Origin: a virus
Lineage: Duplodnaviria; Caudoviricetes
Reading direction: 5' to 3' (one strand)
Virus record (IMG/VR): IMGVR_UViG_3300014205_000010
Coordinates: 1-64,000 of that record
DNA: 64,000 bases
Shown here: one piece after another, positions 6,330 to 51,292 of the stretch
Numbering within the stretch: the stretch's first letter is position 1
Layout: each line of letters starts with the position of its first letter
Notes under the pieces: generated by a model
What the model saw: the letters and a program-made list of their open reading frames with translations, nothing else
Told to the model about the DNA's origin: nothing
The model's database searches: none
Made by a program: the position numbers and the translations under genes

Positions 6330-6358
6330 TTTACTTCAGGCATTTTAAGGTCTAAAAT
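6330..6358 (+). promoter_or_regulatory. Sigma70-type promoter TTTACT-N17-TAAAAT heading the MTase/GT island
   Basis: TTTACT 6330-6335, 17-nt spacer, TAAAAT 6353-6358; same pattern as other intergenic promoters in the window. Confidence 0.55.
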
Positions 6359-6374
6359 ATCATAGAGGTGAAGC

Positions 6375-8785: not shown

Positions 8786-9620
8786 GATTCTTACTGATTC
8801 AACCTCAAGCCCGAAGGGTAAGGGAAGATACTTTTCTATGCCCGACCTTACATCAAGATTATTTGATGGCATGAGTTTGGCCGCCTTATCACAATCTCTC
8901 TTGGATGATATGATCTCTTTTGAAGCAAGAGAGCTTAATATGCCAAAAAGAGACCGAGAAGAAGCTAGAAACCTGACAGATTTTCATAATCATCCTGATG
9001 TGGTTGCAGAATGGGAAGCTGATAAAAATCAGGAAGATGAATATGAAGGATCTGAATGGTTCTATGGAGCGCTGGCTTCTTTTGTTTTCACCGTTAAGAG
9101 TCTATATGGTACATATCGTTTTCTTAAAGCTGACTACCCTGACTTCAAACCGCGTATTATTGTAGACTGGGGAGCAGGCTTAGGGATGCATTCTCTCATA
9201 GCATCATGGCTTTGGCCTGAAGCTAAGATAGTTTATTTCAATGTGCCTGGCATGCAGTCTAATTTTGCTAAACAGATAAAGAAAGCATATGAAGCTGACA
9301 ATATGTATATCAAGACTAAGAGAGAAAATCTTCCGCCAAAGGCAGATCTGATTCTCTCTTATGAATTTCTTGAGCACATGAAAAATCCAGTAGAAGCTGC
9401 CAGAGACATGATGCGTCTAAACCCTGAATTTATGTCTGTTAGCTTCTCTTTTACTGCAGCCTGTCATGGTCATTATACATATTTTGAAACAGATGATGGA
9501 GAAGTTCATCGTTCTGAAGTAACGAGATATGTCAATGACGAATTTCGAATTCATGAATATCAAGCAGTAGGCCATGGCTGGAATGCAAGGCCAGTTATGT
9601 GGAGAAGACATGAAAGTTAA
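8772..9620 (+). CDS. Class I SAM-dependent methyltransferase
   Basis: VDWGAGLG, ADLILSYEFLEHMKNP. Confidence 0.8.
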   Translation: MEWIKILTDSTSSPKGKGRYFSMPDLTSRLFDGMSLAALSQSLLDDMISFEARELNMPKRDREEARNLTDFHNHPDVVAEWEADKNQEDEYEGSEWFYGALASFVFTVKSLYGTYRFLKADYPDFKPRIIVDWGAGLGMHSLIASWLWPEAKIVYFNVPGMQSNFAKQIKKAYEADNMYIKTKRENLPPKADLILSYEFLEHMKNPVEAARDMMRLNPEFMSVSFSFTAACHGHYTYFETDDGEVHRSEVTRYVNDEFRIHEYQAVGHGWNARPVMWRRHES

Positions 9621-9837
9621 AGTCTGGTTTTTTATATGCAAATGTGGATATAGGCATATCAGCTCGACAGGTGGTATTCATTATGGAGCTGCTGTAAATT
9701 ACTTTAGAGCAGTACATGATGAAAAGCCTGATCATAGGTGGAAAAGTCAGCAGATAGATGTTTTGGTTCCAATGGATCTGTACTCATGGAATCTAACAGC
9801 CGTTAGAGAGGATATTGATGAACTTATCTCTGGCTGA
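9610..9837 (+). CDS. Small hypothetical protein (MKVKVWFFICKCG..., possible metal-binding C/H residues)
   Basis: GGAG RBS before ATG near 9610; fills the gap between two MTases. Confidence 0.5.
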   Translation: MKVKVWFFICKCGYRHISSTGGIHYGAAVNYFRAVHDEKPDHRWKSQQIDVLVPMDLYSWNLTAVREDIDELISG

Positions 9838-10651
9838 TAGAGATCCTCTAACAGGTTTATATCTATGTCCTGGGGATCAGCACTGGACTAGACTCTTTGG
9901 CATGACTAGAAAGAAACTTTTTAATAAACTGCTTTATATGGTTATTGATTGGGAAGGTCAAGAGCTAGGGGTCAGAAGATCTCCATATGATGCTCATTCT
10001 CTGTGTTATAAATATACTGAAGATGAGGTTACAGATGAATGGGAAGCTTATGCGCCTTTCCAAAAAGAACACCTTGAGGATATGAATGAATTTGATACTT
10101 CGGAATGGCTTTATACTTGCCTCGGCAGTTTTAACTTTACCGGGCATGAAGTCTTTACCACTTACAACTTCCTGGAAAGAATTGAATATAAACCAAAAAA
10201 TATTCTTGACTTTCATAGCGTTATTGGTCTTCATGCTCTCCTACTGTCTAAACTTTATCCTTCTACTGATGTGGTCTACTTCCATCCTGTTCCTCGCACC
10301 TATGAGTTTGTTCGTGACTGTCTTTTTCCTGCATTTCATGTCAAGGCTGATATCATAACTGATATAAATAAAGTTTCAAAAGCAGATTTAGTATGTTCAT
10401 ATGAGGTTTTTGAAAGAGATCCAGAGCCAATGCAACTTATGCAAACCTGTATAAAAACTATTGGTACTTTTTTCAGTACTAGTAATTGTTGGACTAGACC
10501 TGCAAGAACACACTTTAAAGAATATCTGATAAATGATCAGTGGGTTCCTGAAACTGGAGCAGCTAGAGCTTATAATTCTTTAATAGGTGAACAGCTTAAA
10601 AAGGTAGCCAAAGGCTGGAATTCAAGACCAACTATATATATGAAGGAGTAG
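9815..10651 (+). CDS. Methyltransferase-fold paralogue of 8772-9620 with eroded SAM motif
   Basis: Shares SEW(F/L)Y, ADL..SYE and GWN.RP motifs with 8772-9620; motif I reads LDFHSVIG. Confidence 0.7.
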   Translation: MMNLSLADRDPLTGLYLCPGDQHWTRLFGMTRKKLFNKLLYMVIDWEGQELGVRRSPYDAHSLCYKYTEDEVTDEWEAYAPFQKEHLEDMNEFDTSEWLYTCLGSFNFTGHEVFTTYNFLERIEYKPKNILDFHSVIGLHALLLSKLYPSTDVVYFHPVPRTYEFVRDCLFPAFHVKADIITDINKVSKADLVCSYEVFERDPEPMQLMQTCIKTIGTFFSTSNCWTRPARTHFKEYLINDQWVPETGAARAYNSLIGEQLKKVAKGWNSRPTIYMKE

Positions 10652-10654
10652 GCC

Positions 10655-11260
10655 ATGGCTGTAGCCCCGTATATAGAAGCACAATATTGGAAAGATCATA
10701 TTAATGGCATGATCATTAATGATCTGAAGGATGGTATATTTGGAAATGTTTTATTTATAGGCTGTAATCACGGAGCTGAAGTTGAGGTTGCATGGGAATT
10801 ATGCGAGAATGCTACTTCTCTTAATGGCCTAGATATAGATAATGATGCTCTGTCTTTTGCATATCGTAGAAAAGTAGGTAATTTCTTTGCCCATGATATT
10901 AGACAGAAATTACCAGATGAGCCTAAGTATGATACAATTATCAGTTTTCATACACTTGAACATTTTGATGATGAAGAGTTAAAAACCGTAGTTGATAATA
11001 TATATGCTGCTCTTAATAAGGGTGGGTTGGTTATAGTGTCTGTTCCTTATCTTCATGCTTATCCAACTACGGAACACAAGCAATTTTTTGACCACAAGTC
11101 TCTCAGAAAAGCTTTCAATAAGTTCGATGTTACGCATTGCCAGAGAGATGACAGAGTAGATAAACATGGAAATAAACACGACGTTATTACTTTAATGGCA
11201 AGGAAGAATTTTAATGAAAATCGGATTAGTAGTAACTCCAATAATCCAGTGTCCGCCTGA
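10655..11260 (+). CDS. Class I SAM-dependent methyltransferase
   Basis: LFIGCNHG, GLDID, YDTIISFHTLEHF, LNKGGLVIVSVP. Confidence 0.85.
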   Translation: MAVAPYIEAQYWKDHINGMIINDLKDGIFGNVLFIGCNHGAEVEVAWELCENATSLNGLDIDNDALSFAYRRKVGNFFAHDIRQKLPDEPKYDTIISFHTLEHFDDEELKTVVDNIYAALNKGGLVIVSVPYLHAYPTTEHKQFFDHKSLRKAFNKFDVTHCQRDDRVDKHGNKHDVITLMARKNFNENRISSNSNNPVSA

Positions 11261-12224
11261 GAGATACGGTGGTATTGAACGGGTAGCGTATTGGCTTGGA
11301 CAAGATCTTGTGAAACTTGGTCATAAGGTTACATTGTTTGCTAGAGATGGTTCGTATCTTGAAGGAGCAGAAGTCATTACTTTTCTAGGGTCAGAAGGAA
11401 AAGAGTATGCTTCTCTTATAGCCCAGAAACACCGTGGAACCTATTTTGACGTTATTCATGATTTTACGCATGATAAGCATTTAACTGGTCACTTTAGATA
11501 TGAATCTAGAGTAATTAATACACTTCAAGGCCTTGCTAAAAGAGGGCCTAATACTGCTTGTATATCATATGCTCAAAGGAAACATCTTTATGGCGAACTT
11601 GCTACTTACCCGGTTGTTTACAATCGCGTTCCTACTGATTATTTTGTGCCTATTAATAATCCAACTCGCGACTATCTTCTCTACATGGGCAGCGTTAATG
11701 ACTACAAGGGTGTTGATATCGCAGTTGAAGTTGCCATTGAAACAGGAAACGTCTTAAAAATCTGTGGGCCAGCCTGGGATTCAGCATATTTTGATAAATT
11801 CGTTAAGCCAAAAATCGGAGATAATATTCAATTTATTGGAGATGTTGGTGGTGAAGAAAAACTCAGTCTTTTACAGAATGCTAAGGCTTTGTTTCACCCA
11901 GTCAGGTGGTGCGAAGCCGGAGCTATTATTGTTTCGGAATCTATTTCTTGTGGTACTCCAGTTGTTGGTTCTTACAATGGTGTCATCCCCGAGCTTGTTT
12001 CTCCAGCTGTTGGTAAGCTTGCATTTGTCTTACCTTTTGATGAATACAAGCATGGTTCTGGCGGCTGTTATAACAAAGAAGGAATGATAGAAGCAGTAGA
12101 GACTATAGACGAAATTGACAGAGATACGTGTAGAGGATATGCTGAAGCATATTTTGACAAGAGCAAATCTACAGTTGAATATCTAGAATTATATGCTAAA
12201 ATAACTTCAGGAGAAAACTGGTAA
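11214..12224 (+). CDS. Glycosyltransferase, GT4 (GT-B)
   Basis: PPERYGGIER, GHKVTLFA, YKGVD, EAGAIIVSESISCGTPVV. Confidence 0.9.
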   Translation: MKIGLVVTPIIQCPPERYGGIERVAYWLGQDLVKLGHKVTLFARDGSYLEGAEVITFLGSEGKEYASLIAQKHRGTYFDVIHDFTHDKHLTGHFRYESRVINTLQGLAKRGPNTACISYAQRKHLYGELATYPVVYNRVPTDYFVPINNPTRDYLLYMGSVNDYKGVDIAVEVAIETGNVLKICGPAWDSAYFDKFVKPKIGDNIQFIGDVGGEEKLSLLQNAKALFHPVRWCEAGAIIVSESISCGTPVVGSYNGVIPELVSPAVGKLAFVLPFDEYKHGSGGCYNKEGMIEAVETIDEIDRDTCRGYAEAYFDKSKSTVEYLELYAKITSGENW

Positions 12225-12548
12225 ATGGAAGCTGCGCAGCCTAGACTTAATTCAACATGTGCAAATGCCATGAAAAAATGGGGCAGGCCAGTTGATTGGG
12301 ACAAAGTAAATGGTACGCTCTCTTGCAACTATTGTGGGTCTATGACCGTCGAAGATTTTCAAGTTCAGCTAGAGACACTTCACGTAGACTTTTTTGAAAT
12401 TAATCTAGAAAGAAAACAAATTAGTATTAGAAGAAACCAGGCTCCATTTAGATTTTGCCATTACCACCTGTTTGATGATGGAGCTACTCAGGAATCTGCT
12501 GATACTATGTGGAATATGATAATCGAGAAGCTCGATGCCAAATCTTGA
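12225..12548 (+). CDS. Hypothetical protein with CxxCG motif
   Basis: Starts immediately after the upstream TAA; CNYCGS. Confidence 0.6.
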   Translation: MEAAQPRLNSTCANAMKKWGRPVDWDKVNGTLSCNYCGSMTVEDFQVQLETLHVDFFEINLERKQISIRRNQAPFRFCHYHLFDDGATQESADTMWNMIIEKLDAKS

Positions 12549-12687
12549 CCACGAGCATGAATTCGAATGCAAGCAGTGCTATGCACGCCCGGACCCGGTT
12601 CCGGCCAAGTGGAACACATGGTGCAGTGCCCTAGCTATTGTGTGTCCAACCGTCCTCCTGATGTTCGTCAAGTGGATGAATTCATGA
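12535..12687 (+). CDS. 50-aa Cys-containing peptide with hydrophobic C-terminus (below ORF-track cutoff)
   Basis: MPNLDHEHEFECKQCYARP...ALAIVCPTVLLMFVKWMNS; its TGA overlaps the GT2 ATG (ATGA at 12684-12687). Confidence 0.5.
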   Translation: MPNLDHEHEFECKQCYARPDPVPAKWNTWCSALAIVCPTVLLMFVKWMNS

Positions 12688-13382
12688 CTAAAGCTGATTT
12701 AATTGTATCAGTTCATGTTGTAGACGAGCCCTCCTTGGATTACCTTAGGCAATGTCTGAACTCAATTATTCAATTTACTCCAAGAGAGTTATATACTCTT
12801 ACCTGTGTTATTGATCGGGGTTATGATGGAACAGCCGAATTTATCCGTGACCATTACTGGTCCAAAGGTCACGTTGACTTCGTGTTATATAATCGAGATC
12901 AACAGGGCTACACAAGAACAAATAACATCGGCCTTGAGAGATCTGAAGCTGAGTGGGCCGTCCTCCTTAATCTTGATCTCGTTGTTAACCAAAGATGGCT
13001 CGAAGATCTTATTGACTGCGGAGAACGGAGTATGGCAGGTGTGGTCGGATGTAAGCTCCTTGATGATTCGGGACTCATCAATCATGCTGGCGCTTATGGA
13101 GTTGGGTCACATCGTGGCATGAATGAACTCAATATCAACTATTTCGAGGAGGAAGAAGTTGAATGGGTTACTGGTGCCTGTTTTATGATAAATAAAAAGC
13201 TTCGAGATGCCATTGGTAATCTTGATGAATATTATCCGCATTGGGGTAGCGACAGAGAATATTGTCTTAAGGCTAGAGAAGCTGGTTTCAAGGTTATGTA
13301 TTCTCCCGTAACTATCACACACTATACTGAGCGATCTAATTCTGAAGAAGTCAAAGCTATGTTTAAGGATTTACCGCGCTAA
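12684..13382 (+). CDS. Glycosyltransferase, GT2 (GT-A, WbbL/rhamnosyltransferase-like)
   Basis: YLRQCLNSI, GYTRTNNIG, VLLNLD, WVTGACFMI, SDREYCLKAREAG. Start re-called at 12684. Confidence 0.88.
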   Translation: MTKADLIVSVHVVDEPSLDYLRQCLNSIIQFTPRELYTLTCVIDRGYDGTAEFIRDHYWSKGHVDFVLYNRDQQGYTRTNNIGLERSEAEWAVLLNLDLVVNQRWLEDLIDCGERSMAGVVGCKLLDDSGLINHAGAYGVGSHRGMNELNINYFEEEEVEWVTGACFMINKKLRDAIGNLDEYYPHWGSDREYCLKAREAGFKVMYSPVTITHYTERSNSEEVKAMFKDLPR

Positions 13383-40409: not shown

Positions 40410-40701
40410 ACATATAATCTGGCTTTACATAGAATTTGTTAATATCGTAGTCGGCAAGAAAAATCATAACACTACCATTGCCATGACGCCACACTGCCTT
40501 GGATCCCTGTCCAACATCCTCAATTTTAACTAGACCAGTGTTATCAATCACATCTATACCATGCTTGGTATAAAGTTTCATGATAATAAACGGACCTTCA
40601 ATTGCTCCAGTATCAGCCTTCTTGAATAAGTGCATACCCATCTTGACTTCGCCAATTTTATTTAACATTCTGTATCTACTAGCCATTGAAATTCTCCTCA
40701 A
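40372..40701 (-). CDS. Hypothetical protein
   Basis: ORF filling the gap in the operon. Confidence 0.5.
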   Translation of the reverse strand: MRRISMASRYRMLNKIGEVKMGMHLFKKADTGAIEGPFIIMKLYTKHGIDVIDNTGLVKIEDVGQGSKAVWRHGNGSVMIFLADYDINKFYVKPDYMYEVEPDAETTVE

Positions 40702-41767
40702 TTAATTTTCTTTTTTCAGTTCGATCTAAAGAACCGAACCAATCCATTATTCTGAGATTTTTCGCATACTCAGCGTACGGTCTGAGATCAATAAATTGTT
40801 TTCCTCGTCTAGGATTGGATTCTCTTTGTAGGGTTCGTCTTGCACTTGCTCCGAGCCACTCTCCCATGAAGCAGGTGACAGCCTTCCCAGCCTGTGCATA
40901 TTGATTTCCCACGTTTCCGATAAATTCGAATTCATCTCCGTAACCAAAGATTCGAGCTTCTTCACGAACAGTGAGAAATCTGTCAAAGCTTGGGTGGATA
41001 ATTGTAGGGCCGCCGGTGATTGTGGGCCCAGGAGATCTCCAACTTGCTCTCCTAGTAGGACCGAAAGGTTGACCATATAGATTATCTCTAGCTGAGGGGA
41101 GTCTTCTCCAGATTTCCGAGGCTGTAAATCCAGGTGGAATATACTTCGCGATGGAAGCGACTTGCCCTGTGAATTTAGTTTTGTCATGATTCAGAAATTC
41201 TCCTTCTGCTATAAATTGTAAATCCCAGATAGCATCTTTTATTGTTGGAACTGGCATTGGATTAAATTTTGCCAGCTTAAAGTCGTATTTACTAGCTATA
41301 TAATGAAATCTCGGTCTTATCTGTGGGCTACCATGTAATACGCTATCGGAGAACAGATAAGTATGCTGATACTCATGGAAAATACTATCCAGGTCGGCGA
41401 GTATATCTTGACCTTTATTCCATAGGCCAGGAACAGACTCCATAATAAAAATATCGGTATCCAAAGCCATGGCAATATCAGCACACTCATACATACAGTT
41501 ATTAATTGGGTCGTGTGAACCACGATTAGCACCCATAACTGAAAAGGCTGAACATGGAGGATTTGCCACGACCAGATTAATATTTTTTGGTAAATAACTA
41601 CCCCATTTATTCTTCGGATATATTATCGGAAATGAAAAATTATGCCTGGCAGTCTCAAGGCCAAGACCAAGATTTTCGTACATGGCTTTTACTTCAAAAC
41701 CAGCTCTTTGTATCCCAATTATAAACGAGCCAGCAAAAATATGGACACCTACCGCTGTTAAGCTCAT
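40679..41767 (-). CDS. DNA cytosine-5 methyltransferase homologue with atypical motifs
   Basis: NPPCSAFS (motif IV), MESV (motif VI), PQIRPR (VIII), RFLTVREEARIFG (IX), QYAQAGKAV (X); motif I reads HIFAGSF. Confidence 0.8.
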   Translation of the reverse strand: MSLTAVGVHIFAGSFIIGIQRAGFEVKAMYENLGLGLETARHNFSFPIIYPKNKWGSYLPKNINLVVANPPCSAFSVMGANRGSHDPINNCMYECADIAMALDTDIFIMESVPGLWNKGQDILADLDSIFHEYQHTYLFSDSVLHGSPQIRPRFHYIASKYDFKLAKFNPMPVPTIKDAIWDLQFIAEGEFLNHDKTKFTGQVASIAKYIPPGFTASEIWRRLPSARDNLYGQPFGPTRRASWRSPGPTITGGPTIIHPSFDRFLTVREEARIFGYGDEFEFIGNVGNQYAQAGKAVTCFMGEWLGASARRTLQRESNPRRGKQFIDLRPYAEYAKNLRIMDWFGSLDRTEKRKLIEENFNG

Positions 41768-42342
41768 TTTATCGGAATACCTTTTCTTTTGAAATAATCT
41801 CCATCTGCTAATATTATCTTAATACGATATTCTCTTCTAAAACACTCAACCTTATCTAAGCCAATATGCCGGCCCTTTACTTCAATCCAGGTGTTTTTTT
41901 CAGGTAAGAAAAAATCTGGTAGATATGTTCCAATAGAAATTTTGAATCTTTTTGGTTCATAAATCCATTTTATATTTTTAGAATCTAGCCATCTTGCAAA
42001 GCTTGATTCCCATCTACTTCTAAACCAGATATTTTTGTATTGTACTCGTCTTGTAATTCTATGATTTTCAGGTTTAAATCTTCCTTCCATCATAGCTGTA
42101 ATTACTTTGGCTGATATTTTAGCTCTAGTTTCAGAGTTTAATTTTTGACCTTTGAGCTTATTAGAAATTTTATTTTTACATTCTTGAGATCGAGGCTTTC
42201 CTTTTCTCCAGGCTGCTTGTCTTATTAATTCTTCTTTTGTTCTATTTCTAGTTGCATTAGCAATTTTATTACTATGTTCTGGATCACAAACCTTGCAATA
42301 GTTGTGAGCTTTACCGCATGATTTGATGGTCCAGTTTCTCAT
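41764..42342 (-). mobile_element. Free-standing homing endonuclease (NUMOD3 + PD-(D/E)XK)
   Basis: SQECKNKIS and SETRAKIS NUMOD3 repeats; FRSRWE, YEP, YLPDF, IEVKG. Confidence 0.75.
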
Positions 42343-43367
42343 ATAGCAGCCATTACCTGTTTTCTTATGTCAATTAAAGCTGCTCTATCTGATTTTAAGA
42401 AATCTGCAAATGCTTTGGCTCCTCTGTAATTGATACCATCATATTTATAGAATGCCCCTGACTGAGTAATAATGCCTGTAACACGCCCAGCTGCAATAAT
42501 ATCTTTGATTCTATCGATTTTGCCGTTGTAATAGAAATCAAATTCGGCTTCTTTTCCATGAGGGCCTCCGACTTTACATTTTCTTACTCTAGCCTTTACT
42601 GTATGACCAACCTGTGCTTCTTTGTTTTTTGGATTAACTGGAACAGATAGATACGATGGTATATCATTCGGTTTTATCCATTCGCCAGCCCTGAGTTCAA
42701 TCCTGAGTGAAGCGAAGAACTTAAGGCCTCTACCACCTGGTTGAAAATCTCCTGCTCTGGGCCCACCGATAGTACTTCTATTTTGATTAATTATGACGAT
42801 TGCTGTGTTGTGGTTTCTTGCATTAATTCTCTTGAATCCGAGGTTATTAACTCTAGCATCAACTGCCATGTGCGTTTGCATGTCATTATCTGTGATGGCC
42901 ATAGGAGCGAACGCGGTAAGAGAATCAAGAATGATGAGGTCAACTGGCTCAAAGTCATGATACTCCTTGCTCCTTGGATTACCTAGATTAATAGCCTTGA
43001 ATAGGATATCAAATCCTTCTTCAGATTCTGCAATTTGAGATACAACCAACCTAGATACATCTACACCTAGAGTAGTCATCCATGCTGAATCGAAAGATTT
43101 TTCTGCATCTACCCATAAGCATGTCATTTTCTTTTTCTGAGCTTCTACGATAATTTTGGCTGCGATAGCTGATTTACCAGCTGACTCATTGCCAAATATC
43201 TCGGTTGTCTTACCCATTGGGATTCCACCATTAGTTGCCCAATCTAAAAAGAGAGATCCAGTTGATATTCTATTTACCTCTTGCTTTTGCCAATCTGATC
43301 CAAGGAAAATCGAATCGGCCCCGTGTTCTTTTTGTATGATTGCTATGAGGTCGCTAATACTTGTCAT
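42339..43367 (-). CDS. recA: RecA-family recombinase
   Basis: ISTGSLFLD, GGIPMG, GNESAGKS, DAEK, LIILDS, INQNR, PGGRGLKFFASLR. Confidence 0.93.
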   Translation of the reverse strand: MTSISDLIAIIQKEHGADSIFLGSDWQKQEVNRISTGSLFLDWATNGGIPMGKTTEIFGNESAGKSAIAAKIIVEAQKKKMTCLWVDAEKSFDSAWMTTLGVDVSRLVVSQIAESEEGFDILFKAINLGNPRSKEYHDFEPVDLIILDSLTAFAPMAITDNDMQTHMAVDARVNNLGFKRINARNHNTAIVIINQNRSTIGGPRAGDFQPGGRGLKFFASLRIELRAGEWIKPNDIPSYLSVPVNPKNKEAQVGHTVKARVRKCKVGGPHGKEAEFDFYYNGKIDRIKDIIAAGRVTGIITQSGAFYKYDGINYRGAKAFADFLKSDRAALIDIRKQVMAAI

Positions 43368-43936
43368 GATTTTTTAGGCTTAGGAAGCATATCTAACGGA
43401 GTCCATTCAGCTCGAGTTTTTCCATATCTTCCAGTGTATTGAGATTCAGTAAGACCAACATTATGGAAAGTAATTTGAGCTATTCTCTCTCCGACTTCAA
43501 TTGATACGTCAAAGTCAGAATCATTAGTCATTTCCATAGTCCAGCGAGATACATAACCAACATCGCCAAGACCAGCACATTTACACACCGAGAGACAGTG
43601 TCTACCTGTCGTGGATTTAGCTTTCATCTCAGTGGTAATGATATTCATACCACCAATGAATTCCTCGGTGTGGCAGAGGATAGTCTCACGCGCTCTGACA
43701 ACGATCAACTCATCCGCCTTTATAGGCTTATCCCACATTAAATTGAAAGCATCAGAGGTGCCATAGCGAATTGTAGGCCTTCCAGCATAATATTGTTTTT
43801 GCCTAAAAAACCATTCTCCGAGTCTAACGTCGTATGAATTTGAATTTAACTGGCTATTAAAATATGGGTCAATCAGAATATTTCCTTCTTCCATTTGACC
43901 CTTGATTTCTGCATCACTTAACATTGAGTGCCTCAT
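43364..43936 (-). CDS. dcd: dCTP deaminase
   Basis: MLSDAEI, NSYDVRLG, AKSTTGR, AGLGDVGY, TMEM, ERIAQITF. Confidence 0.88.
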   Translation of the reverse strand: MRHSMLSDAEIKGQMEEGNILIDPYFNSQLNSNSYDVRLGEWFFRQKQYYAGRPTIRYGTSDAFNLMWDKPIKADELIVVRARETILCHTEEFIGGMNIITTEMKAKSTTGRHCLSVCKCAGLGDVGYVSRWTMEMTNDSDFDVSIEVGERIAQITFHNVGLTESQYTGRYGKTRAEWTPLDMLPKPKKS

Positions 43937-46556
43937 TCTTTCTGAGAATTACAAAAGCTCCTGCTTCTTCTAATGCAGCAACAGCTCTTGAATTTAATTT
44001 TCTCTTGACTACTCTTGATTCGAAATCTTCGAAAGAAATAAATGGTCTCTTAGTTATAATTTCTTCTAGACCAGCTGGTCCAACTCCTTTTACTGTTCCT
44101 AATCCGAACCTTATAGAGCCATTGTCAAGAGTATATGATTTACCGGATTTATTAATATCAACTCTTCTGATTGGAATTCCTAATCTCTTTGCTTCAGTAA
44201 CTAACTTATATTGTTTTTCTTCTTCTATTGTATGGGCAAGTGAAGCAGACATAAACTCAGCTGGATAATGAACCTTCATATACATAGTCCAGTATGATAT
44301 GAAAGCATAAGCGCATGAATGAGATCGGTTAAATCCATATCTTGCAAACGAAAGAATCTGATCCCATAAGGCAGAAGCATCTACTTGATCCATGTTATTC
44401 TGTACTGCGCCTCTAACGAATTTCTTTCTGAGAATATTTAATTCATCATCTCTGTGTAATTTAACTTGTTCTGACTTTTTAACAATATCTTTTCTGAGTT
44501 TTTCTGCATCCGCAAGAGACATATTAGCAAGTTTAGAAGCTAACTCTGTCATCTGTTCTTGATATGTAATAACCCCGTAAGTTCTTCCTAAGACCTGTTC
44601 AACAGCAGGGTGCTTGAATTCATATGTTTCTCTACCAAGTTTTCTTGAGGCGTAGACTTTGTCCATACCCACGTCTCTAGGACCTGGCCTACAGAGAGCA
44701 CCCGCTGCAATGAGGTCTTCAAACTCTGTGGGTCTGATGTCTCGCAAAGTTCTTCCAGCGGCATATGCCTCAAACTGGAAAATACCAGTGTAATTACCCC
44801 TCTGGAATTCTTTATAGACTTTACGGTCATCGATTGGATAATCATACACAGAAGTATTTGTAAGCTGTTCACATTCTCTGAGAATTGAGAGGGTGTTAAG
44901 TCCAAGAAGGTCAAACTTAATAAAACCCATTTCTGATAATTCTTTTGATTCTCCTTCCTGCCAAGCAGACAATAAATCTCCACCGTATCTGATAACGGGG
45001 AGAGTTCCATTCGCATCGACAGCAAATCCGGCGGCGTGACGGCCCATTTGCCTGATAGAGCCGTGTAGTCTATCCAGACTTTCTCTAATCTGTGGATTTC
45101 CATTAAAAATGATTTGAACTTCAGGGACATTATCTGCTATTTCCTCAATAGTCTCAGCCCAATCTGGTAAGGCTGGCAGTCTAACATCTATCTCCCAAAC
45201 TCGTATCAAATCTCTGATGAGGTTTCTATTCTGAAATGTTCCATAAGCAGGAATTTGAAATACTTTTTCTCCATACCTACTTTTTAGTCTATCCATGACT
45301 TCGACTCTTCTGTCTCTAGGAAAGTCTACATCAATATCTGGATACCCTATTCTATCTTTGGTTAGAAATCGCTCAAACATTAAATCGAATTTTATCGGAT
45401 CTATCGTAGTAATAGAGAGTAACCAAGATACGATACTGCCAGCAGCAGAACCACGACCTGGACCGACGAATATATCATTTCTCTTAGCCCAGTGAATAAG
45501 ATCTGCAACGACCAGGAAATAGTTTGCGAAACCTTTTTCATTGATTACACCTAGTTCTCTGTCCAATCTATCTTTATATACAGAAAACTCATCAGCTGGT
45601 ATAATGCCTTCGCCACTCCAAATGTTTAGCTTCTTATAGCAGAATCCCTTAAGCCATTCTTCTGGTGTTTTATCTTTTACGAATGGTGGAATAGGCAAAT
45701 TAGGTTCTTCAATTGGACTGAATTTTTCTATTCTATCAGCTATTAAATCTGTTTCTTGAATAGCCTGTAATGCTCTATCTTCAGATATTCCACCATATTT
45801 TTTGGCCCAAACAAGCATTTCTTTTTCTGTTTTAAGATATAAACCATGAGTAGATTCCCAACCATCACCTCTTTCAGAGGCAATAGTAGTTTTACGAATA
45901 ATCGCGAGAAGAGTTGTGCGATATTTTGCCCAACCTTTTCTTGGATAATGACAATCATTCGTAGCTACAAGAGGAATACCACTCTTGTCAGACAACTTTA
46001 TCAGAAACTTATTAATTGTTTGTTGCTGTTCTAATTCGTTAAATTGGATCTCGAGATAAAGTCGGTCTCCAAAGATAGTTCTGAGTCTCTTGAATCGCTG
46101 AATAGCCAACTCTCTATCGCGTTGTCGAATGAGCCCATCTCCAATTGGGCCTTGAACGCATCCAGTGAGGCATATAATACCTTCTTTGTACTGTTCAAGG
46201 ACTGACCAGTCAATTCTTGGCCTATTATAGAAACCTGTAATGTGACCTTCATTTGTCGCCTTAATTAAATTGTGATATCCTTCTCTGTTTATAGCCAACA
46301 GAGTAAGATGCATTCTTTCTTCGCCAGGAGATTTAACTAACCTATCTTCTACGAAATAAACTTCACAACCGAAAATTGGTTTAATATCTTGTTGATTACA
46401 GGCTAACCAAAATCTAGGAAATCCTCCTAGAGTTCCATGATCTGTAATAGCTAGGGCTTTTTGGCCAAATTCAGTGGCTGTCTTAGCCCATTCTTCTACC
46501 CGGCAGATAGCATCACCGATAGAATATTCTGTATGAACATGTAGGTTAGTTACCAT
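43914..46556 (-). CDS. dnaE: DNA polymerase III alpha subunit (DnaE), C-terminally short
   Basis: HVHTEYS PHP domain, GPGRGSAAGS, PDIDVD, GRHAAG, KFDLLGL, YGFNRSH, terminal HhH. Confidence 0.95.
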   Translation of the reverse strand: MVTNLHVHTEYSIGDAICRVEEWAKTATEFGQKALAITDHGTLGGFPRFWLACNQQDIKPIFGCEVYFVEDRLVKSPGEERMHLTLLAINREGYHNLIKATNEGHITGFYNRPRIDWSVLEQYKEGIICLTGCVQGPIGDGLIRQRDRELAIQRFKRLRTIFGDRLYLEIQFNELEQQQTINKFLIKLSDKSGIPLVATNDCHYPRKGWAKYRTTLLAIIRKTTIASERGDGWESTHGLYLKTEKEMLVWAKKYGGISEDRALQAIQETDLIADRIEKFSPIEEPNLPIPPFVKDKTPEEWLKGFCYKKLNIWSGEGIIPADEFSVYKDRLDRELGVINEKGFANYFLVVADLIHWAKRNDIFVGPGRGSAAGSIVSWLLSITTIDPIKFDLMFERFLTKDRIGYPDIDVDFPRDRRVEVMDRLKSRYGEKVFQIPAYGTFQNRNLIRDLIRVWEIDVRLPALPDWAETIEEIADNVPEVQIIFNGNPQIRESLDRLHGSIRQMGRHAAGFAVDANGTLPVIRYGGDLLSAWQEGESKELSEMGFIKFDLLGLNTLSILRECEQLTNTSVYDYPIDDRKVYKEFQRGNYTGIFQFEAYAAGRTLRDIRPTEFEDLIAAGALCRPGPRDVGMDKVYASRKLGRETYEFKHPAVEQVLGRTYGVITYQEQMTELASKLANMSLADAEKLRKDIVKKSEQVKLHRDDELNILRKKFVRGAVQNNMDQVDASALWDQILSFARYGFNRSHSCAYAFISYWTMYMKVHYPAEFMSASLAHTIEEEKQYKLVTEAKRLGIPIRRVDINKSGKSYTLDNGSIRFGLGTVKGVGPAGLEEIITKRPFISFEDFESRVVKRKLNSRAVAALEEAGAFVILRKNEALNVK

Positions 46557-46592: not shown

Positions 46593-47537
46593 TTAATACC
46601 ATTCTAGATGTTTTAACAAAATTGAGTATGACCCACAAATAGAAGTATCTATTGTAATATCAGGATTTCTTCTAATCCTGTAATATAGAAGAGTAGATAG
46701 CATGTCTTTAACAGTATCATCTTCATCTATTGATAGTATTTCCTCAAGAGTCTTGTGCAATTCTTCAGTAGTAAAATCTGTTTTTCGTATTTTATACTCA
46801 AGAGTTGATACTCTGTGTATGTTTGAAATTAGAGACGTCTTTGTGCTTTCTTGAAAACTAATGATTTTTGGTTCTTCATCTACTATCTGATTAAGAATTT
46901 TTACATTACTCTCATATGCATGAAGCGAGCCACATATATGAGTATATGTTCCTACACCAAGTGATGTTTGATTTGCTACAATTTCTAGAAGTGAAGCCCA
47001 ATGATAGAAATCATATGGAAGGCCTAGATATATATCTTGAGATCTAACGTATACTACAAGATCTAACCATTCACCTCGTGGCAAGAAATGTAACATGATA
47101 TTACATGGAAAGTCCTTCGTATTAACCGTCTGATCTCTTGGCTGATAAATTGTAGCAACTGCTTGTCTTGTACTCTTATCTAGGTTTATTTTATTGATGA
47201 TGCTCGGTATCTGTCTCATCAACCTTGGGCCATAAGCTCCATGTAGGGTTCTTCCATCATCAGAAAACTCCCACATCTTCTTGTTATAAAAGCCAATCAT
47301 GTCTGCTCTGTTATTTTGTGTAGTTATCCACAAATATTCTGCAATCATGAAGTATGGATTTATTCTTCTGACTTTATTAGTTATAATTTTACTAGTCGGA
47401 TTTTCCACAACTATAGATGTAGGCCCGATGTCTAATGTTGGAATACCTCTAGGAGAATATCTTGCTCCATGATCTAGAATATATTTTATTATTTCTGGAT
47501 ATATTGTTTCAATGTCCTCTGCATCAAATACTTCCAA
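46593..47537 (-). CDS. Thymidylate-synthase-family enzyme, predicted dCMP hydroxymethyltransferase
   Basis: AEYLW, GAYGPR, FPCN (catalytic Cys), GSLHAY; RSQDIYLGLPYD has Asp where E. coli ThyA has Asn177. Confidence 0.8.
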   Translation of the reverse strand: MEVFDAEDIETIYPEIIKYILDHGARYSPRGIPTLDIGPTSIVVENPTSKIITNKVRRINPYFMIAEYLWITTQNNRADMIGFYNKKMWEFSDDGRTLHGAYGPRLMRQIPSIINKINLDKSTRQAVATIYQPRDQTVNTKDFPCNIMLHFLPRGEWLDLVVYVRSQDIYLGLPYDFYHWASLLEIVANQTSLGVGTYTHICGSLHAYESNVKILNQIVDEEPKIISFQESTKTSLISNIHRVSTLEYKIRKTDFTTEELHKTLEEILSIDEDDTVKDMLSTLLYYRIRRNPDITIDTSICGSYSILLKHLEWY

Positions 47538-48654
47538 TGTTTACGTCCTTTATAAACTTCTCGACGATATTGTCTATAGAGAATTTATTTCGAAAAAACT
47601 TTCCTTGCTCTTCTTGAGCATATGGCCCAAAATCTAAAAGTCGTTTAATATTTGTAACTGCACCCATCGTGGTTACATATTCATTTTCTTTTGGAAAGAA
47701 CCATTCTTTAGTCATTTCAGCATAACCAGCAAACTTAGGGAATATACATCTTAGTCCAAGAGAGAGTCCTTCGCCCATGCTCATAGACCACTGGCCTGGG
47801 TAATCGAAGAGTGTTAAGTGCACCCATCCCTTGGAAATGTGTGTCAAATATTCTTCATAGCTGTTGGTAACTGAATTTATTACCTTTGGATGATTTAAGA
47901 TTGGGTGAGCTTTTCCACTCGGATTAGTAATGATTATCTTTAGACCTGGTACATGTAATCTATCTAAGATTCGTTCAAGGCTACTGATAGCATTAGCATA
48001 TTGTGGAGCTGAAGATAGTCTGTGATTGTAGATCAACGTCGGATAGTCATTCTTAATGGCTATTTTAGCGATTGATCCTATGAGTTCAGTGTTGAGCGGA
48101 GGGTTAATAATAAGAGGCTTGGCTTGAGGAGGTTTAAGTCCATTTATAAGTCGCAATCCTCCTAGATATCTTTCATATCCAGTCTGAGAATTGAATGCAA
48201 TATAATCAGCTTTCCATGCTGCTTCAATTTGTCTGAAGAAATAAGAATTTTTCAGTTCTATTACTGGATTATCTGGACTATCTATCCAGTGATTATAGGC
48301 AATAATTATTCCGTCATATACTGACCTATATTGACCAACTCTGCATGGATCATTAGTCCATAAAATATCTGGATTTTCTTTGTTTATAACTTTCTTGACA
48401 TAATTATCAACAAAGAATCTATCCTGAACTATACCATGAAAATCTACATAATACAATACAGCATTTGGCATAGATTGATAACCGTCGCCAATACGCTGTT
48501 CATCCCATGGCATCAGAATAACACATTCATGGCCTCTTTTAGAAAGGCCTTCTATCATGCTTTTCATGAAGATATAATTACTGTCTGATGTAATTAAAAG
48601 TTTTCCATCAATGTCTAAGCTGCTAATCTGCAGATCGAACAGAATTTTTACCAT
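47524..48654 (-). CDS. GT-B glycosyltransferase, probable DNA-base glycosyltransferase
   Basis: LSKRGHECVIL, PDILWTNDP, YNHW, AFNS, IYNHR, WSMSMGEG; adjacent to the TS homologue. Confidence 0.7.
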   Translation of the reverse strand: MVKILFDLQISSLDIDGKLLITSDSNYIFMKSMIEGLSKRGHECVILMPWDEQRIGDGYQSMPNAVLYYVDFHGIVQDRFFVDNYVKKVINKENPDILWTNDPCRVGQYRSVYDGIIIAYNHWIDSPDNPVIELKNSYFFRQIEAAWKADYIAFNSQTGYERYLGGLRLINGLKPPQAKPLIINPPLNTELIGSIAKIAIKNDYPTLIYNHRLSSAPQYANAISSLERILDRLHVPGLKIIITNPSGKAHPILNHPKVINSVTNSYEEYLTHISKGWVHLTLFDYPGQWSMSMGEGLSLGLRCIFPKFAGYAEMTKEWFFPKENEYVTTMGAVTNIKRLLDFGPYAQEEQGKFFRNKFSIDNIVEKFIKDVNIGSI

Positions 48655-49174
48655 TAGAATTTATCCAGCCTATAATTCTATCAATTTTATCTGTAGTTGG
48701 TTTAAAAGTCATATAATCTAGGCCTTCTTCAAAACCAAGTTTTTTCAACATTGTATTATACTCTGTTATGATAGGTATAATATATTCTGTTGGTTTATCC
48801 TCTGCTCTCCATCTTTCAACTATAGTTTCTATTTCTTCTATAACCAGAATGAGCTTAATAACATCCTTGTTCTGTCTCATTTGTTTTTCATACCAAGGAA
48901 AATCACAAGCTCGGCCAAATACCTTGGCATAAACTAATTCACTGAATGAAAACCTATCTAGAATAAAATCTTTATATGCATTTACTTCTCTGGCAAGTTT
49001 AATTATTTTTTCACAGTCTTCTTTGCCTCTTCGAAATTCTCTTATAGTTTCCCATCCATTTTCTGAAGGCCTTGGGACTGTTAATACTTTAAAATTATAT
49101 GGATCACCAGAAAGTGTTGTCAGAAGTGTAGTTTTGCCTACGCGATCTATTCCTTCAAGTACAAATGCGGTCAT
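48623..49174 (-). CDS. dNMP (thymidylate-like) kinase
   Basis: VLEGIDRVGKTT P-loop; ILDRFSFSELVY. Confidence 0.85.
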   Translation of the reverse strand: MTAFVLEGIDRVGKTTLLTTLSGDPYNFKVLTVPRPSENGWETIREFRRGKEDCEKIIKLAREVNAYKDFILDRFSFSELVYAKVFGRACDFPWYEKQMRQNKDVIKLILVIEEIETIVERWRAEDKPTEYIIPIITEYNTMLKKLGFEEGLDYMTFKPTTDKIDRIIGWINSNGKNSVRSAD

Positions 49175-50244
49175 AGAAAAGTTGCTCTCCTAGAAGATAA
49201 TTGTTCTGCCTCAGCATTCATTTTATAGTATCTGGATGGTCCACTACTACACATTCTACATATCTCGTTTTGATCATTAATATGTTCAGCAGCTATTCTT
49301 TCAATGTTTTCTTTTGTCATTATCCGTAACAACGGAGTATCATATATATTTCCGTATGAGTACTTCATATCTCGCTGATCGAAAGGAAGATTATCTCCGA
49401 CGAGATAGCAACAAGGAAATACTGAACCATCAGTATCTATAAAAGCATGCAGATATGGAATAACACAGTTTTTTGGGTCTACTGGAGATACTTTGTCTCC
49501 ATTTGTTATAATTTGGCGTACGTTAGTATATCTGTCTATCCAATCACTAAAATCTGAGGTATTACCAAATAAATTTGCCAGGTCATAGCGAAGTTTAAGT
49601 ACCTGTTGTTCTGTAACTACGTTATAGTCATGAACAAAATACCCATAAATTGGTATCTGATTATCATAGCATTTTTTTACCATAAGCGGAAATTCTTCTA
49701 TGTTTTCTGACTGTATGGTGTACTGAACTCTAACCTTATCTAAACCAGCTTCGCTATAGAGTCGCACGAATTCATTCTTAACAAAAGCTGCATTTACAAA
49801 AGCAGTTTCATATGAATTTGGGTGTGAACCTCTAATTTTTGCCCAAGTTTGTGGTGTAGCTCCGTCTATAGAAAACCTGATAAATCCGAATTTAGTCAAA
49901 TCCAGATCAACATATCTATTGGTAGAATTATCAAGACCAGTAGTAAACATCCCAAGTTTTATCTCTGGTTTAATGTGATCAATGAGAGCTTTGAGATGAA
50001 CATAATTCATTGGGTCTCCACCAGATAAAACAATAGTTTCAAGATCTGGTAGGCTATTAAGCTCTCTTACGGCTAATTCAACTTGAATGACATTTTTGCT
50101 ACCGGCTTGAATAGCTGCCCATTCTGGTTTATGACACATAATACATTTTTGTGGGCATGTATTCGTGACATTAAGCTGAACTGAAACAAGGTGTGGTTCT
50201 TGTCTTTTTATCCATGATTCATACATAGTAACATATTGCGGCAT
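49171..50244 (-). CDS. Radical SAM enzyme with C-terminal SPASM/twitch domain
   Basis: CPQKCIMC, LSGGDP, FSIDG, CVIP...IDTDGSVFPCC...YGNI...CRMC. Start re-called at ATG 50244. Confidence 0.88.
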   Translation of the reverse strand: MPQYVTMYESWIKRQEPHLVSVQLNVTNTCPQKCIMCHKPEWAAIQAGSKNVIQVELAVRELNSLPDLETIVLSGGDPMNYVHLKALIDHIKPEIKLGMFTTGLDNSTNRYVDLDLTKFGFIRFSIDGATPQTWAKIRGSHPNSYETAFVNAAFVKNEFVRLYSEAGLDKVRVQYTIQSENIEEFPLMVKKCYDNQIPIYGYFVHDYNVVTEQQVLKLRYDLANLFGNTSDFSDWIDRYTNVRQIITNGDKVSPVDPKNCVIPYLHAFIDTDGSVFPCCYLVGDNLPFDQRDMKYSYGNIYDTPLLRIMTKENIERIAAEHINDQNEICRMCSSGPSRYYKMNAEAEQLSSRRATFL

Positions 50245-50250
50245 TATTCT

Positions 50251-50279
50251 ATTATAACCACCTATATACAAGATGTAAA
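50251..50279 (-). promoter_or_regulatory. Promoter TTTACA-N17-TATAAT, 6 nt before the radical SAM ATG
   Basis: Near-consensus boxes with exact 17-nt spacer. Confidence 0.65.
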
Positions 50280-50280
50280 T

Positions 50281-50961
50281 TTATATTCTTGAAGAAATTG
50301 TATTCATGATGGCTTTATAAGCTCTTTCGTTTTCAGTTACGAATTCTAATTTCTTCATAGCAGCTATAGTTCTATCAGTATGTCTGTATCTTTCATATGC
50401 TGGATGATACATTGTCATGTATAATCCACTATAATATTCTCTTGACATGTATAGAATTTTGTTTCTAATTCTGTCTGTTGTTATAAATGGATCTTTTTGG
50501 TGTGTTTGATCAAAAAACCATGAATGCGCCAAATTTCCCAGGGATAAAATCGCCCAGGGATCTATTAGTCTGATTTGATCTTCAAGCCACTCCCTGCAAT
50601 TATATACTTCTTCATGGGTAGGCAATGAGTTATCTGGAGTTCTACACTTTATGATATTTGTTAGTGCCCAGACAGTATCCTCTGAAAACCCTTGCTTTAA
50701 CCACTCGCCAATAGGGGCCTCCATGAGACCCCTTGCATATCCTTGCTGGAACCTGCGCCACTGTTCTTCTTCTGCGTATGAATTGTCATCCCAACCAGAA
50801 GCTCTTTTACTTAACTGTCCTGGATTTTGTGCAACAACCAAAATCTTGGCATCTTTTGGAAAAAACCCAGGCATGCTAGCGAATTGAAACCTAGGACAAG
50901 TCCTACATTTCCATATTCGCTGATTTAACTCTTTCAACGGCGATTGGGTTACCTTCGGCAA
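50281..50961 (-). CDS. Uracil-DNA glycosylase family 4/5-like protein
   Basis: CRTC, VVAQNPG, TNIIKCR, NC, ILSLG, MYHPAY. Confidence 0.8.
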   Translation of the reverse strand: MPKVTQSPLKELNQRIWKCRTCPRFQFASMPGFFPKDAKILVVAQNPGQLSKRASGWDDNSYAEEEQWRRFQQGYARGLMEAPIGEWLKQGFSEDTVWALTNIIKCRTPDNSLPTHEEVYNCREWLEDQIRLIDPWAILSLGNLAHSWFFDQTHQKDPFITTDRIRNKILYMSREYYSGLYMTMYHPAYERYRHTDRTIAAMKKLEFVTENERAYKAIMNTISSRI

Positions 50962-51292
50962 CTTGTCTATCCCAGTTCATTCTAATTTTGGTGAGAATCC
51001 ACTCTGTAGCTTCATCAGCTTCTATTCCAAGGATGAGAAGCATGTTAACAGAGAAGATGAAGCAATCAACGGCTTCCTCGATTTGTTTGTCTCGATTGTG
51101 AGGCCGCGCTCTCTTGGACACTTTCCAATTGAATTCATCTCTATACTCGAATGCTTCTCTTGCTAGGCCCGTAGAAAGATAATCTGCGATCTTGTCGAGA
51201 TATTGAGGATCCTCGCTGACTTTTTTGAAGTCAACGAAGAGAGCCTCAAATTCTTTCTGGACCTTGAAGATTTCTCCAAGGCCTTCAGCCAT
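50903..51292 (-). CDS. All-alpha dNTP pyrophosphatase (dimeric dUTPase/dCTPase, MazG-like)
   Basis: REAFE...NWK...EEAVDCFIF...KIRMNWDRQ. Confidence 0.8.
   Translation of the reverse strand: MAEGLGEIFKVQKEFEALFVDFKKVSEDPQYLDKIADYLSTGLAREAFEYRDEFNWKVSKRARPHNRDKQIEEAVDCFIFSVNMLLILGIEADEATEWILTKIRMNWDRQVAEGNPIAVERVKSANMEM

Follow-up and report, generated by a model that had tools for sequence, protein, structure and literature searches.

In T-even phages, glucosyl-5-hydroxymethylcytosine (glucosyl-hmC) is made by the dCTPase gp56, the hydroxymethylase gp42, the dNMP kinase gp1 and the alpha- and beta-glucosyltransferases, and the same logic recurs in a six-gene cassette of an uncultured phage with a genome of ~91 kb. 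The cassette occupies 4.7 kb (46593–51292, minus strand) of the window analyzed here, which is the first 64 kb of the complete 91,320-bp IMG/VR virus record IMGVR_UViG_3300014205_000010, a genome with direct terminal repeats. It encodes a MazG-like nucleoside triphosphate (NTP) pyrophosphatase, a uracil-DNA glycosylase (UDG)-like protein, a radical S-adenosylmethionine (SAM) enzyme, a Tmk-like kinase, a GT-B glycosyltransferase (GT) and a ThyA-family thymidylate synthase (TS) homologue; we reproduced both the coordinates and the family assignments that an earlier note on this DNA had given for these six open reading frames (ORFs). We give a probability of roughly one half to the reading that the cassette joins a T4-like pre-replicative replacement of cytosine to a new tailoring module, in which the radical SAM enzyme changes the sugar or its donor to yield a glycosyl-hmC unlike glucosyl-hmC.

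The features common to T4 and this phage are an NTPase that drains dCTP, a ThyA homologue with Asp where E. coli ThyA has Asn177 and an acidic residue where it has Leu143, a kinase for nucleotides, a transferase of the GT-B type and, apart from the ThyA homologue, a dTMP synthase. The individual proteins differ from their T4 counterparts, in that the TS homologue shares just 21% identity with gp42 and clusters with SPO1 gp29, phage G gp319 and MilA-like enzymes, the transferase is GT4-like and has no sequence match to T4 AGT or BGT, the kinase is Tmk-like, dTMP comes from ThyX, and there is an extra radical SAM enzyme. What sets the cassette apart from T4-type replacement and glycosylation is a module, conserved among relatives, in which a twitch radical SAM enzyme is encoded with a GT4-like transferase and a kinase; the radical SAM enzyme, which is of a rare kind, and the transferase are tightly coupled to the T4-style genes.

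Phages RB69, DLP3 and RL38J1 make arabinosyl-5-hydroxycytosine (PMC13326640). As proposed for the present phage, a ThyA homologue acts on dCMP and is followed by a dNMP kinase and then by DNA glycosyltransferases, and their phage-encoded tailoring of the sugar-nucleotide donor can be likened to the system described here (PMC13326640). Their synthases, however, carry a D169N substitution and use flavin and O2 to form 5-hydroxy-dCMP (5hodCMP), whereas the protein here keeps the equivalent Asp168, and their donor enzymes are not radical SAM enzymes (PMC13326640). In phage M6, thymidine is hypermodified by a dUMP hydroxymethylase, 5-HMUDK, AADT and the radical SAM isomerase gp53, the only reconstituted radical SAM step that installs a DNA base modification and one whose pathway also starts from a ThyA-type hydroxymethylase (PMC8989533). 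M6 gp53 is spore-photoproduct-lyase (SPL)-like and has as its substrate a thymine–glycine adduct in DNA (PMC8989533), whereas the enzyme here is of twitch/SPASM type, lies beside a glycosyltransferase rather than an AADT, and belongs to a pathway in which the base is predicted to be cytosine. The enzyme does not belong to the gp53 type, as it has a twitch domain and a tblastn search of GenBank phages returned one unrelated record only; no match to aGPT-Pplase was found among the six cassette proteins and four neighbors.

A metavirome survey described ThyS- or TET-associated DNA glycosyltransferase clusters, which share with the present locus the placement of a GT-B transferase beside ThyA homologues and sugar-modifying genes in uncultured phages (bioRxiv 10.1101/2023.12.21.572611). 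The partners there are epimerases, APH kinases and cytidylyltransferases, and the term ‘radical SAM’ is absent from the text (bioRxiv 10.1101/2023.12.21.572611). The linkage of phage GT-B transferases to ThyA homologues and sugar-modifying genes is an established theme, and in the pathways compared here the cytosine sugar modifications are built on hmC or 5-hydroxycytosine (5hoC) by glycosyltransferases with conventional donor-sugar enzymes. Our full-text literature search found thymidine pathways with an SPL-like radical SAM isomerase, and hmC and 5hoC glycosylation pathways that lack a radical SAM enzyme; it found no paper with a twitch/SPASM radical SAM enzyme in phage DNA hypermodification, in line with the earlier note, whose author knew of no characterized glycosyl-hmC pathway with such a step. 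Hypermodified bases decide which restriction, CRISPR and type IV defenses a phage escapes, and they are a source of new DNA chemistry and of enzymes for biotechnology. From a twitch radical SAM enzyme that is conserved, phage-specific and tied to both a transferase and a hydroxymethylase, we would predict a modified cytosine that is new and is made anaerobically.

A predicted 5-hydroxymethyl-dCMP synthase

The TS homologue (46593–47537, minus strand; 314 amino acids (aa)) matches the Pfam ThyA family at 85.8 bits and PHROG 5131 at 2.7e-61. Its best solved match is the CMP 5-hydroxymethylase MilA (1e-26), the top phage matches being gp319 of phage G and the SPO1 and SP-10 dUMP hydroxymethylases. 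An alignment with T4 gp42, E. coli ThyA, phage G gp319, SPO1 gp29 and the SP-10 enzyme shows Cys145, which corresponds to the ThyA nucleophile Cys146, to be invariant, and Glu67, His206 and Tyr208 are also present. The protein contains the sequence RSQDIYLGLPYD, the last residue of which, Asp176, aligns with ThyA Asn177, so that the Asp originally noted at the specificity position is indeed there. Asp is found at this position also in T4 gp42, MilA and phage G gp319, and Asn in SPO1, SP-10 and ThyA; Asp denotes a cytosine substrate and Asn a uracil substrate (PMC13326640; PMC5175136), and we rejected a dUMP hydroxymethylase of the SPO1/SP-10 kind on this residue. Asp142, within the motif TKDFPC, aligns with ThyA Leu143, where an acidic residue denotes a hydroxymethyl rather than a methyl product (PMC13326640). 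Asp168, within the motif RSQD, is the retained equivalent of ThyA Asp169, a position at which 5hodCMP synthases of the RB69 gp48 type have Asn (PMC13326640), and a 5hodCMP synthase was rejected on this basis. Finally, Ser166 and Arg124 correspond to ThyA Ser167 and Arg126, and Ser and Arg at these positions denote a preference for deoxyribose, with MilA having Ala176 and Lys133 instead (PMC5175136), and a CMP hydroxymethylase was rejected on these residues.

A ThyX is encoded separately (82878–83549 in coordinates of the whole genome, G000; minus strand; 129 bits), so the ThyA homologue is not needed for dTMP synthesis. Given this and the four independent diagnostic positions, the protein is very likely a 5-hydroxymethyl-dCMP (hm-dCMP) synthase, which upholds its first assignment as a dCMP hydroxymethylase. 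A scan of IMG/VR with this protein alone gave no match. In the cultured giant Bacillus phage G (NC_023719 229448–238398), gp319, the ThyA homologue with Asp at the Asn177 position, is encoded in the neighborhood of gp313 (annotated as an alpha-glucosyltransferase), gp315 (long and Tmk-like) and gp317 (a dCMP deaminase), a gene set that suggests a glucosyl-hmC-type pathway in that phage.

A twitch-type radical SAM enzyme encoded with a glycosyltransferase and a kinase

The radical SAM gene (49171–50244, minus strand) encodes 357 aa from the ATG at 50244, and its product scores above cut-off with both the Pfam Radical_SAM (40 bits, cut-off 29.5) and SPASM (43.7 bits) models. It has the canonical CX3CX2C motif (C39x3C43x2C46), an SGGDP SAM motif at residues 83–87 and five conserved C-terminal Cys residues (269, 287, 288, 338 and 341). 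Five such residues are enough for one auxiliary cluster, which makes this a twitch-type enzyme rather than, despite the Pfam match, a member of the full SPASM subgroup with its two auxiliary clusters and seven or eight C-terminal Cys. The same five Cys positions show little or no variation in 43 relatives that are more distant, and the spacing Cys269-x17-Cys287 ... Cys338-x2-Cys341 resembles that of the auxiliary-cluster ligands of BtrN.

The structural model of the enzyme (pLDDT, the predicted local distance difference test, 82.1) shows the partial TIM barrel of the radical SAM superfamily and matched SkfB (Z 23.1), BlsE (22.8), DesII (22.3), viperins (~18) and BtrN (16.6), with SuiB, CteB, MoaA and anSME as further matches. 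The enzyme thus shares a fold class with the cytosylglucuronate decarboxylase BlsE, the TDP-4-amino-4,6-dideoxyglucose deaminase DesII and the 2-deoxy-scyllo-inosamine dehydrogenase BtrN, but the likeness is one of fold only, with no membership of these families at the sequence level. Profile comparison against PDB sequences returned SkfB (8e-10), viperins and PqqE (~3e-4), the twitch region of BtrN (0.002) and BlsE (0.013), the BtrN and BlsE matches covering partial regions only. A phmmer search of the PDB gave no match with the whole protein and nothing informative with the twitch domain alone, and the neighbors in the ESM Atlas were generic radical SAM/SPASM proteins. We also considered an NrdG-type activase of a phage-encoded ribonucleotide reductase and rejected it on two grounds: NrdD is missing from the genome, and the enzyme carries a twitch domain.

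The transferase gene (47524–48654, minus strand) encodes 376 aa. Its AlphaFold model (pLDDT 82.6) has a GT-B fold with two Rossmann domains, and the nearest solved folds are all of the retaining GT4/GT5/GT20 type (glycogen synthase, PglA, BshA, MshA, OtsA and PimA); the sequence itself scores 23.5 bits with Pfam Glyco_transf_4, below the cut-off of 28.5. Its neighbors among viral models include the GTs of phages SP-15 (rank 47), phiM9 and RL2RES and the ‘DNA alpha-GT’ of S-TIM5 (rank 48), all from phages known or suspected to hypermodify DNA. Scans of IMG/VR with the single protein and with the GT alignment gave no match. That the transferase acts on DNA is suggested by its gene context and not by the protein.

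The kinase gene (48623–49174, minus strand; 183 aa) encodes a candidate hm-dCMP kinase. The protein matches PHROG 761 at 5.4e-9 and its Pfam model at 21 bits, below the cut-off of 27, and has a Tmk-type P-loop (G8–T15) and a DRF motif (D73-R74-F75). In the Atlas, the clusters closest to it consist of viral Tmk/dNK proteins, some of them Tmk-TS fusions, which favors a mononucleotide over a base in DNA as the substrate. A tblastn search of GenBank phages gave no match at E ≤0.01, thus no homology to the 5-HMUDKs M6 gp54 or ViI gp67 at this level, although the protein may still be a 5-HMUDK-type kinase; a word-based search returned the query alone.

Conservation of the module in relatives

The close family of the radical SAM enzyme comprises nine homologues at 55–62% identity among 5.8 billion proteins, with four more relatives at 25–33% identity, and a profile search of 1.84 billion cluster representatives found 112 relatives at E ≤1e-30. 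Homologues of the transferase lie on contigs of 89,784, 65,726, 34,653 and 11,033 bp, which are the sizes of the contigs that carry radical SAM homologues, for all four of the long contigs. The order UDG, radical SAM, kinase is kept in two loci at 57–58% identity, L011 showing the UDG followed by the radical SAM gene and L010 the radical SAM gene followed by the kinase gene, and the radical SAM and kinase genes overlap both here and in L010. Two further loci are much more diverged. In L012 (28% identity, GC content 25%), a MazG homologue directly upstream of the radical SAM gene is followed by this gene, the GT, the kinase and a UDG::DnaE fusion, in that order, and in L013 (30% identity) the order is radical SAM, GT, kinase; kinase homologues are thus present in L010, L012 and L013, and in both L012 and L013 the radical SAM and GT frames, counted from stop to stop, overlap by 16 nt. 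As the same transferase and kinase stand beside a radical SAM gene of only 28–30% identity, these sequence comparisons indicate that the trio is a module conserved well beyond the close family. In the two loci long enough to judge, the trio lies in a context of DNA-precursor and replisome genes.

Directly after the UDG::DnaE fusion, L012 encodes a protein of the Peptidase_U32 family (11777–12886, plus strand; E 5e-11), which, relative to the shared block of MazG, radical SAM, GT, kinase and DnaE, stands where the present phage has the TS homologue. The U32 family includes oxygen-independent hydroxylases of RNA pyrimidines (RNA 5-hydroxylases), and the L012 protein may be an alternative route to a hydroxylated pyrimidine. 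L012 also has a canonical Tmk besides the cassette kinase. L002, an IMG/VR fragment with a GC content of 60%, encodes a radical SAM protein that is related more distantly (25% identity), in a run of genes (2916–6859, plus strand) for ThyX, a PNKP-type HAD phosphatase, DUF6378, a short-chain dehydrogenase (SDR), the radical SAM protein and an FkbM methyltransferase; going by these annotations, the run may be another nucleotide- or sugar-tailoring cassette, and the SDR/FkbM context points circumstantially to sugar tailoring.

Taken together, the searches describe a radical SAM family that is small and phage-borne. No match to the cassette DNA was found among GenBank phages; the radical SAM protein alone gave no match in IMG/VR, where alignments of the family recovered distant loci only, and bacterial genomes, when scanned, yielded nothing beyond generic radical SAM genes (~24% identity). 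One locus with two radical SAM genes, a DHFR and a canonical ThyA (L003) was judged not to be the same system. Many of the more distant members (P0077–P0169) are 650–900 aa long and have an N-terminal extension of ~280 aa that in most cases matches no Pfam family. TIR, TPR, HD or cyclase domains are present in a few of them, and P0078 scores 66 bits with the model for prokaryotic viperins; from these architectures, the long relatives may be defense-associated.

Nucleotide supply and the UDG-like protein

The MazG-like protein (50903–51292, minus strand; 129 aa) matches PHROG 173 at 3.3e-7 and Pfam dUTPase_2 at 22.4 bits, just below the cut-off of 22.9, and its motifs E46xxE49 and E73xxD76 form the ExxE...ExxD signature of all-alpha NTP pyrophosphatases. 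We regard it as a candidate dCTPase/dUTPase that would supply dCMP and remove dCTP. The genes for a DnaE-type replicative polymerase (43914–46556, minus strand; PHP, DNA_pol3_alpha, finger and HHH_6 domains) and a dCTP deaminase, Dcd (43364–43936, minus strand), were both found directly downstream of the cassette, where they had been placed before; Dcd scores 104.7 bits with Pfam DCD and 88.5 bits with TIGR02274, just under the equivalog cut-off of 92.8. These assignments support a nucleotide logic like that of T4, made complete by MazG, the kinase and Dcd, in which dCTP would be drained, hm-dCMP made and phosphorylated, and dUMP provided for dTMP.

The UDG-like protein (50281–50961, minus strand; 226 aa) scores 59.7 bits with Pfam UDG and 75.8 bits with the NCBIfam type-4 UDG model, far below the equivalog cut-off of the latter. 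It has the four Cys typical of family 4 (C19, C22, C106 and C122) and HPA186, and its motif A, which is GE(A/G)PG in family-4 UDGs, is altered to AQNPG. A homologue precedes the radical SAM gene in L011, and in L012 a 1533-aa ORF (7191–11789, plus strand) fuses a UDG-like domain (residues 5–139) to the N-terminal side of DnaE (residues 220–1213). In light of this fusion, the UDG-like protein is probably a replisome or polymerase accessory and not a modification enzyme, and its inclusion in the modification chemistry, as the earlier note had it, was not sustained. A phage in which Dcd generates dUTP would benefit from such a polymerase-linked accessory. We did not adopt the bacterial pairing of UdgX-like proteins with radical SAM enzymes (TIGR03914), with which the UDG-like protein scores 40 bits against a cut-off of 190.

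Proposed pathway and alternatives

From the gene content, the residue signature of the TS homologue, the folds and the conservation of the module, we infer the following enzymatic steps, and likewise what the transferase uses as its acceptor and the radical SAM enzyme as its substrate. The MazG-like NTPase would drain dCTP to dCMP, and the dCTP deaminase would drain it to dUTP and hence dUMP, feeding the phage ThyX. The ThyA homologue would convert dCMP to hm-dCMP, and the Tmk-like kinase would phosphorylate this product. Host NDP kinase would complete hm-dCTP for incorporation by DnaE, a polymerase that would need to accept this modified nucleotide. The retaining GT4-like transferase would then add a sugar to the hydroxymethyl group, and the twitch radical SAM enzyme would alter either the attached sugar or the nucleotide-sugar donor by anaerobic radical chemistry, with oxidation, dehydration or deoxygenation, and decarboxylation as options. 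The final glycosyl-hmC would block restriction and CRISPR nucleases, and the DNA of this phage probably carries a sugar-decorated cytosine that has not yet been described.

The radical step may start from a 4-keto-6-deoxyhexose made by an RmlB-like dTDP-glucose 4,6-dehydratase (TIGR01181, 284 bits; PDB matches at 1e-60), whose gene lies immediately upstream of ThyX with an overlap of 16 nt (82878–84562 of the whole genome for the two genes, or 3879–5563 of locus L053; minus strand). A search of the genome found no RmlA, RmlC, sugar (DegT-type) aminotransferase, or second epimerase or dehydratase. By analogy, a 4-keto-6-deoxyhexose donor without a conventional downstream enzyme would be the kind of substrate used in DesII-type chemistry, which is circumstantial support for tailoring of the donor sugar.

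Several observations weigh against this reading of the cassette. A tblastn search with the transferase against GenBank phages, which included known DNA glycosyltransferases, detected no similarity, and the isoelectric point is 5.7–8.2 in 10 of the 11 members of its family, the L012 protein having 9.2, as compared to 9.05 for T4 beta-GT; a near-neutral family without a sequence match does not indicate action on polymeric DNA. No NCBIfam or curated family came near its cut-off with the radical SAM enzyme, and its fold neighbors include sugar-acting enzymes (BlsE, DesII and BtrN) but, in equal measure, peptide maturases (SkfB, SuiB and CteB) and nucleotide enzymes (MoaA and viperin), a mixture that fixes the class of the enzyme but not its substrate. 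The RmlB-like gene fits donor-sugar tailoring circumstantially and could equally serve glycans of the head module. A C5 cytosine DNA methyltransferase homologue (40679–41767, minus strand; Pfam DNA_methylase, 94.8 bits), 5 kb downstream of the cassette, fits poorly with complete cytosine replacement, as it would have no substrate in fully hmC-containing DNA; replacement may therefore be partial, or the gene may be part of a selfish module, adjoining as it does an HNH/NUMOD3-type endonuclease gene (41764–42342, with weak RE_endonuc and NUMOD3 matches; 40679–42342, minus strand, for the pair). Among relatives, the combination of a TS with Asp, a GT-B, a kinase and a radical SAM enzyme that the earlier note proposed to look for was recovered in L012 and L013 as far as the trio is concerned, but no TS homologue was found in the 15 kb examined of L012. 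In L013 (1–4942), the trio lies ~0.7 kb downstream of a tRNA-Met and a divergent trigger-factor (tig) gene and may be in an integrated element of a low-GC bacterium. Given these two contexts, the trio may be independent of hmC.

If that were so, the trio would stand in the replication module by linkage only and would provide a tailored sugar or nucleotide for virion glycosylation, an anti-defense small molecule, or an hmC-glycoside resembling mildiomycin or blasticidin. Besides the L012 and L013 contexts, this explanation draws on the distance of the RmlB-like gene from the cassette, on the TIR, TPR, HD and cyclase fusions in the wider radical SAM family, and on MilA as the best solved TS match and BlsE as a top radical SAM fold match, which together echo the MilA/MilC/MilG set. 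The TS homologue, however, has the deoxyribose signature Ser166/Arg124 and not the Ala/Lys of MilA, and no MilB-like N-glycosidase was seen in the cassette. The translational coupling of the trio with the TS gene, and the MazG, DnaE and Dcd flanks here and in L012, point instead to DNA precursor metabolism, and we regard an hmC-independent trio as quite doubtful. Another explanation would have the phage make ordinary T4-like glucosyl-hmC, with the radical SAM enzyme as a passenger, either unrelated or vestigial. All T4-type functions (dCTPase, hydroxymethylase, kinase and GT-B transferase) are present, as this would require, but the radical SAM gene keeps all of its cluster ligands, is conserved in about nine relatives at 55–62% identity and four more at 25–33%, and stays beside the transferase or kinase gene across the range of 25–62% identity, which makes a passenger improbable, the least credible explanation considered here.

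Alternatively, hmC could be made as proposed and the radical SAM enzyme could act on the base or nucleotide rather than on a sugar, for example by oxidizing the 5-CH2OH group to 5-formyl or by viperin- or MoaA-like chemistry on hm-dCTP or hm-dCMP, with tailoring, and possibly glycosylation too, taking place on the mononucleotide before replication. BtrN and anSME carry out two-electron oxidations, in the case of anSME of Ser to formylglycine, and a single auxiliary cluster with enough Cys for full ligation would suit chemistry of this type. The overlap of the radical SAM and nucleotide kinase genes here and in L010 also speaks for a nucleotide substrate, as does the acidic to neutral charge of the radical SAM and GT families, which is like that of small-molecule enzymes. 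Arg132, Arg147 and Arg347 are invariant and, from their conservation, could bind phosphates. Viperins match the fold at Z 18 and are the next-best profile matches after SkfB, and PADLOC uses one model for viperins that have associated kinases and another for those that do not; yet the PADLOC matches of the enzyme are only weak pVip matches at 23 bits, and viperin and MoaA fall below BlsE and DesII by fold score. In L012 and L013, moreover, the radical SAM gene is coupled to the transferase gene and not to the kinase gene, and no phage is known to glycosylate a base at the nucleotide level. Weighing these points, we consider action on the base or nucleotide unlikely, and we prefer tailoring of the attached sugar or its donor.

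Beyond this preferred reading, we tentatively entertain a more far-reaching version, which we would not expect to hold but do not consider far-fetched, in which the trio is an oxygen-independent tailoring module that leads to a cytosine derivative of a chemical class new to DNA. Candidates may include a deoxy- or keto-sugar, a pentose formed by radical decarboxylation, or a radical-forged link on hmC, and its assembly may take place before replication, at the level of the mononucleotide instead of DNA. With such a role, the enzyme would be the first of twitch type to take part in nucleobase hypermodification. L012, with the U32 protein in the place of the TS homologue, may use the same module on a different hydroxylated pyrimidine.

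Genomic context and gene layout

The minus-strand genes at ~38–57 kb of the window form a replication and nucleotide-metabolism module. In the order of transcription, it starts with a helicase, DnaB, a primase and an SSB-like protein, continues with the MazG-like NTPase, the UDG-like protein, the radical SAM enzyme, the kinase, the GT and the TS homologue, and ends with DnaE, Dcd, RecA, the HNH/NUMOD3 endonuclease, the C5 methyltransferase, a nuclease and RuvC. The designation of the phage as a siphovirus was tested by the absence of a sheath protein alone, for which a search gave no match. Across the whole genome, observed/expected ratios of 4-mer palindromes are 0.80–1.30, with none strongly under-represented (GATC 0.85, GTAC 0.80), and the lowest 6-mers are CCTAGG (0.40) and GGTACC (0.51); the lack of 4-mer avoidance agrees weakly with protection of the DNA as a whole.

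The radical SAM, kinase, GT and TS genes overlap successively by 4, 31 and 14 nt, and owing to these overlaps the four genes are probably translationally coupled. A promoter-like site upstream of them (TTTACA-17-TATAAT, 50251–50279, minus strand), identified by consensus match only, agrees with 11 of 12 consensus positions and is the best match in the region, but the total count of such sites in the region is no higher than in shuffled sequences. The TTG previously taken as the start of the radical SAM gene lies inside the promoter-like site and is set aside here; the homologues begin at the same point as the ATG at 50244, and the −10 element ends 6 nt before this ATG, which makes a gene of 357 aa most likely. 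A transcript from the promoter-like site would, with 6 nt to the ATG (50244–50279, minus strand, for site and start codon), be leaderless or nearly so, and an AGGTGG within the promoter spacer could serve read-through transcripts.

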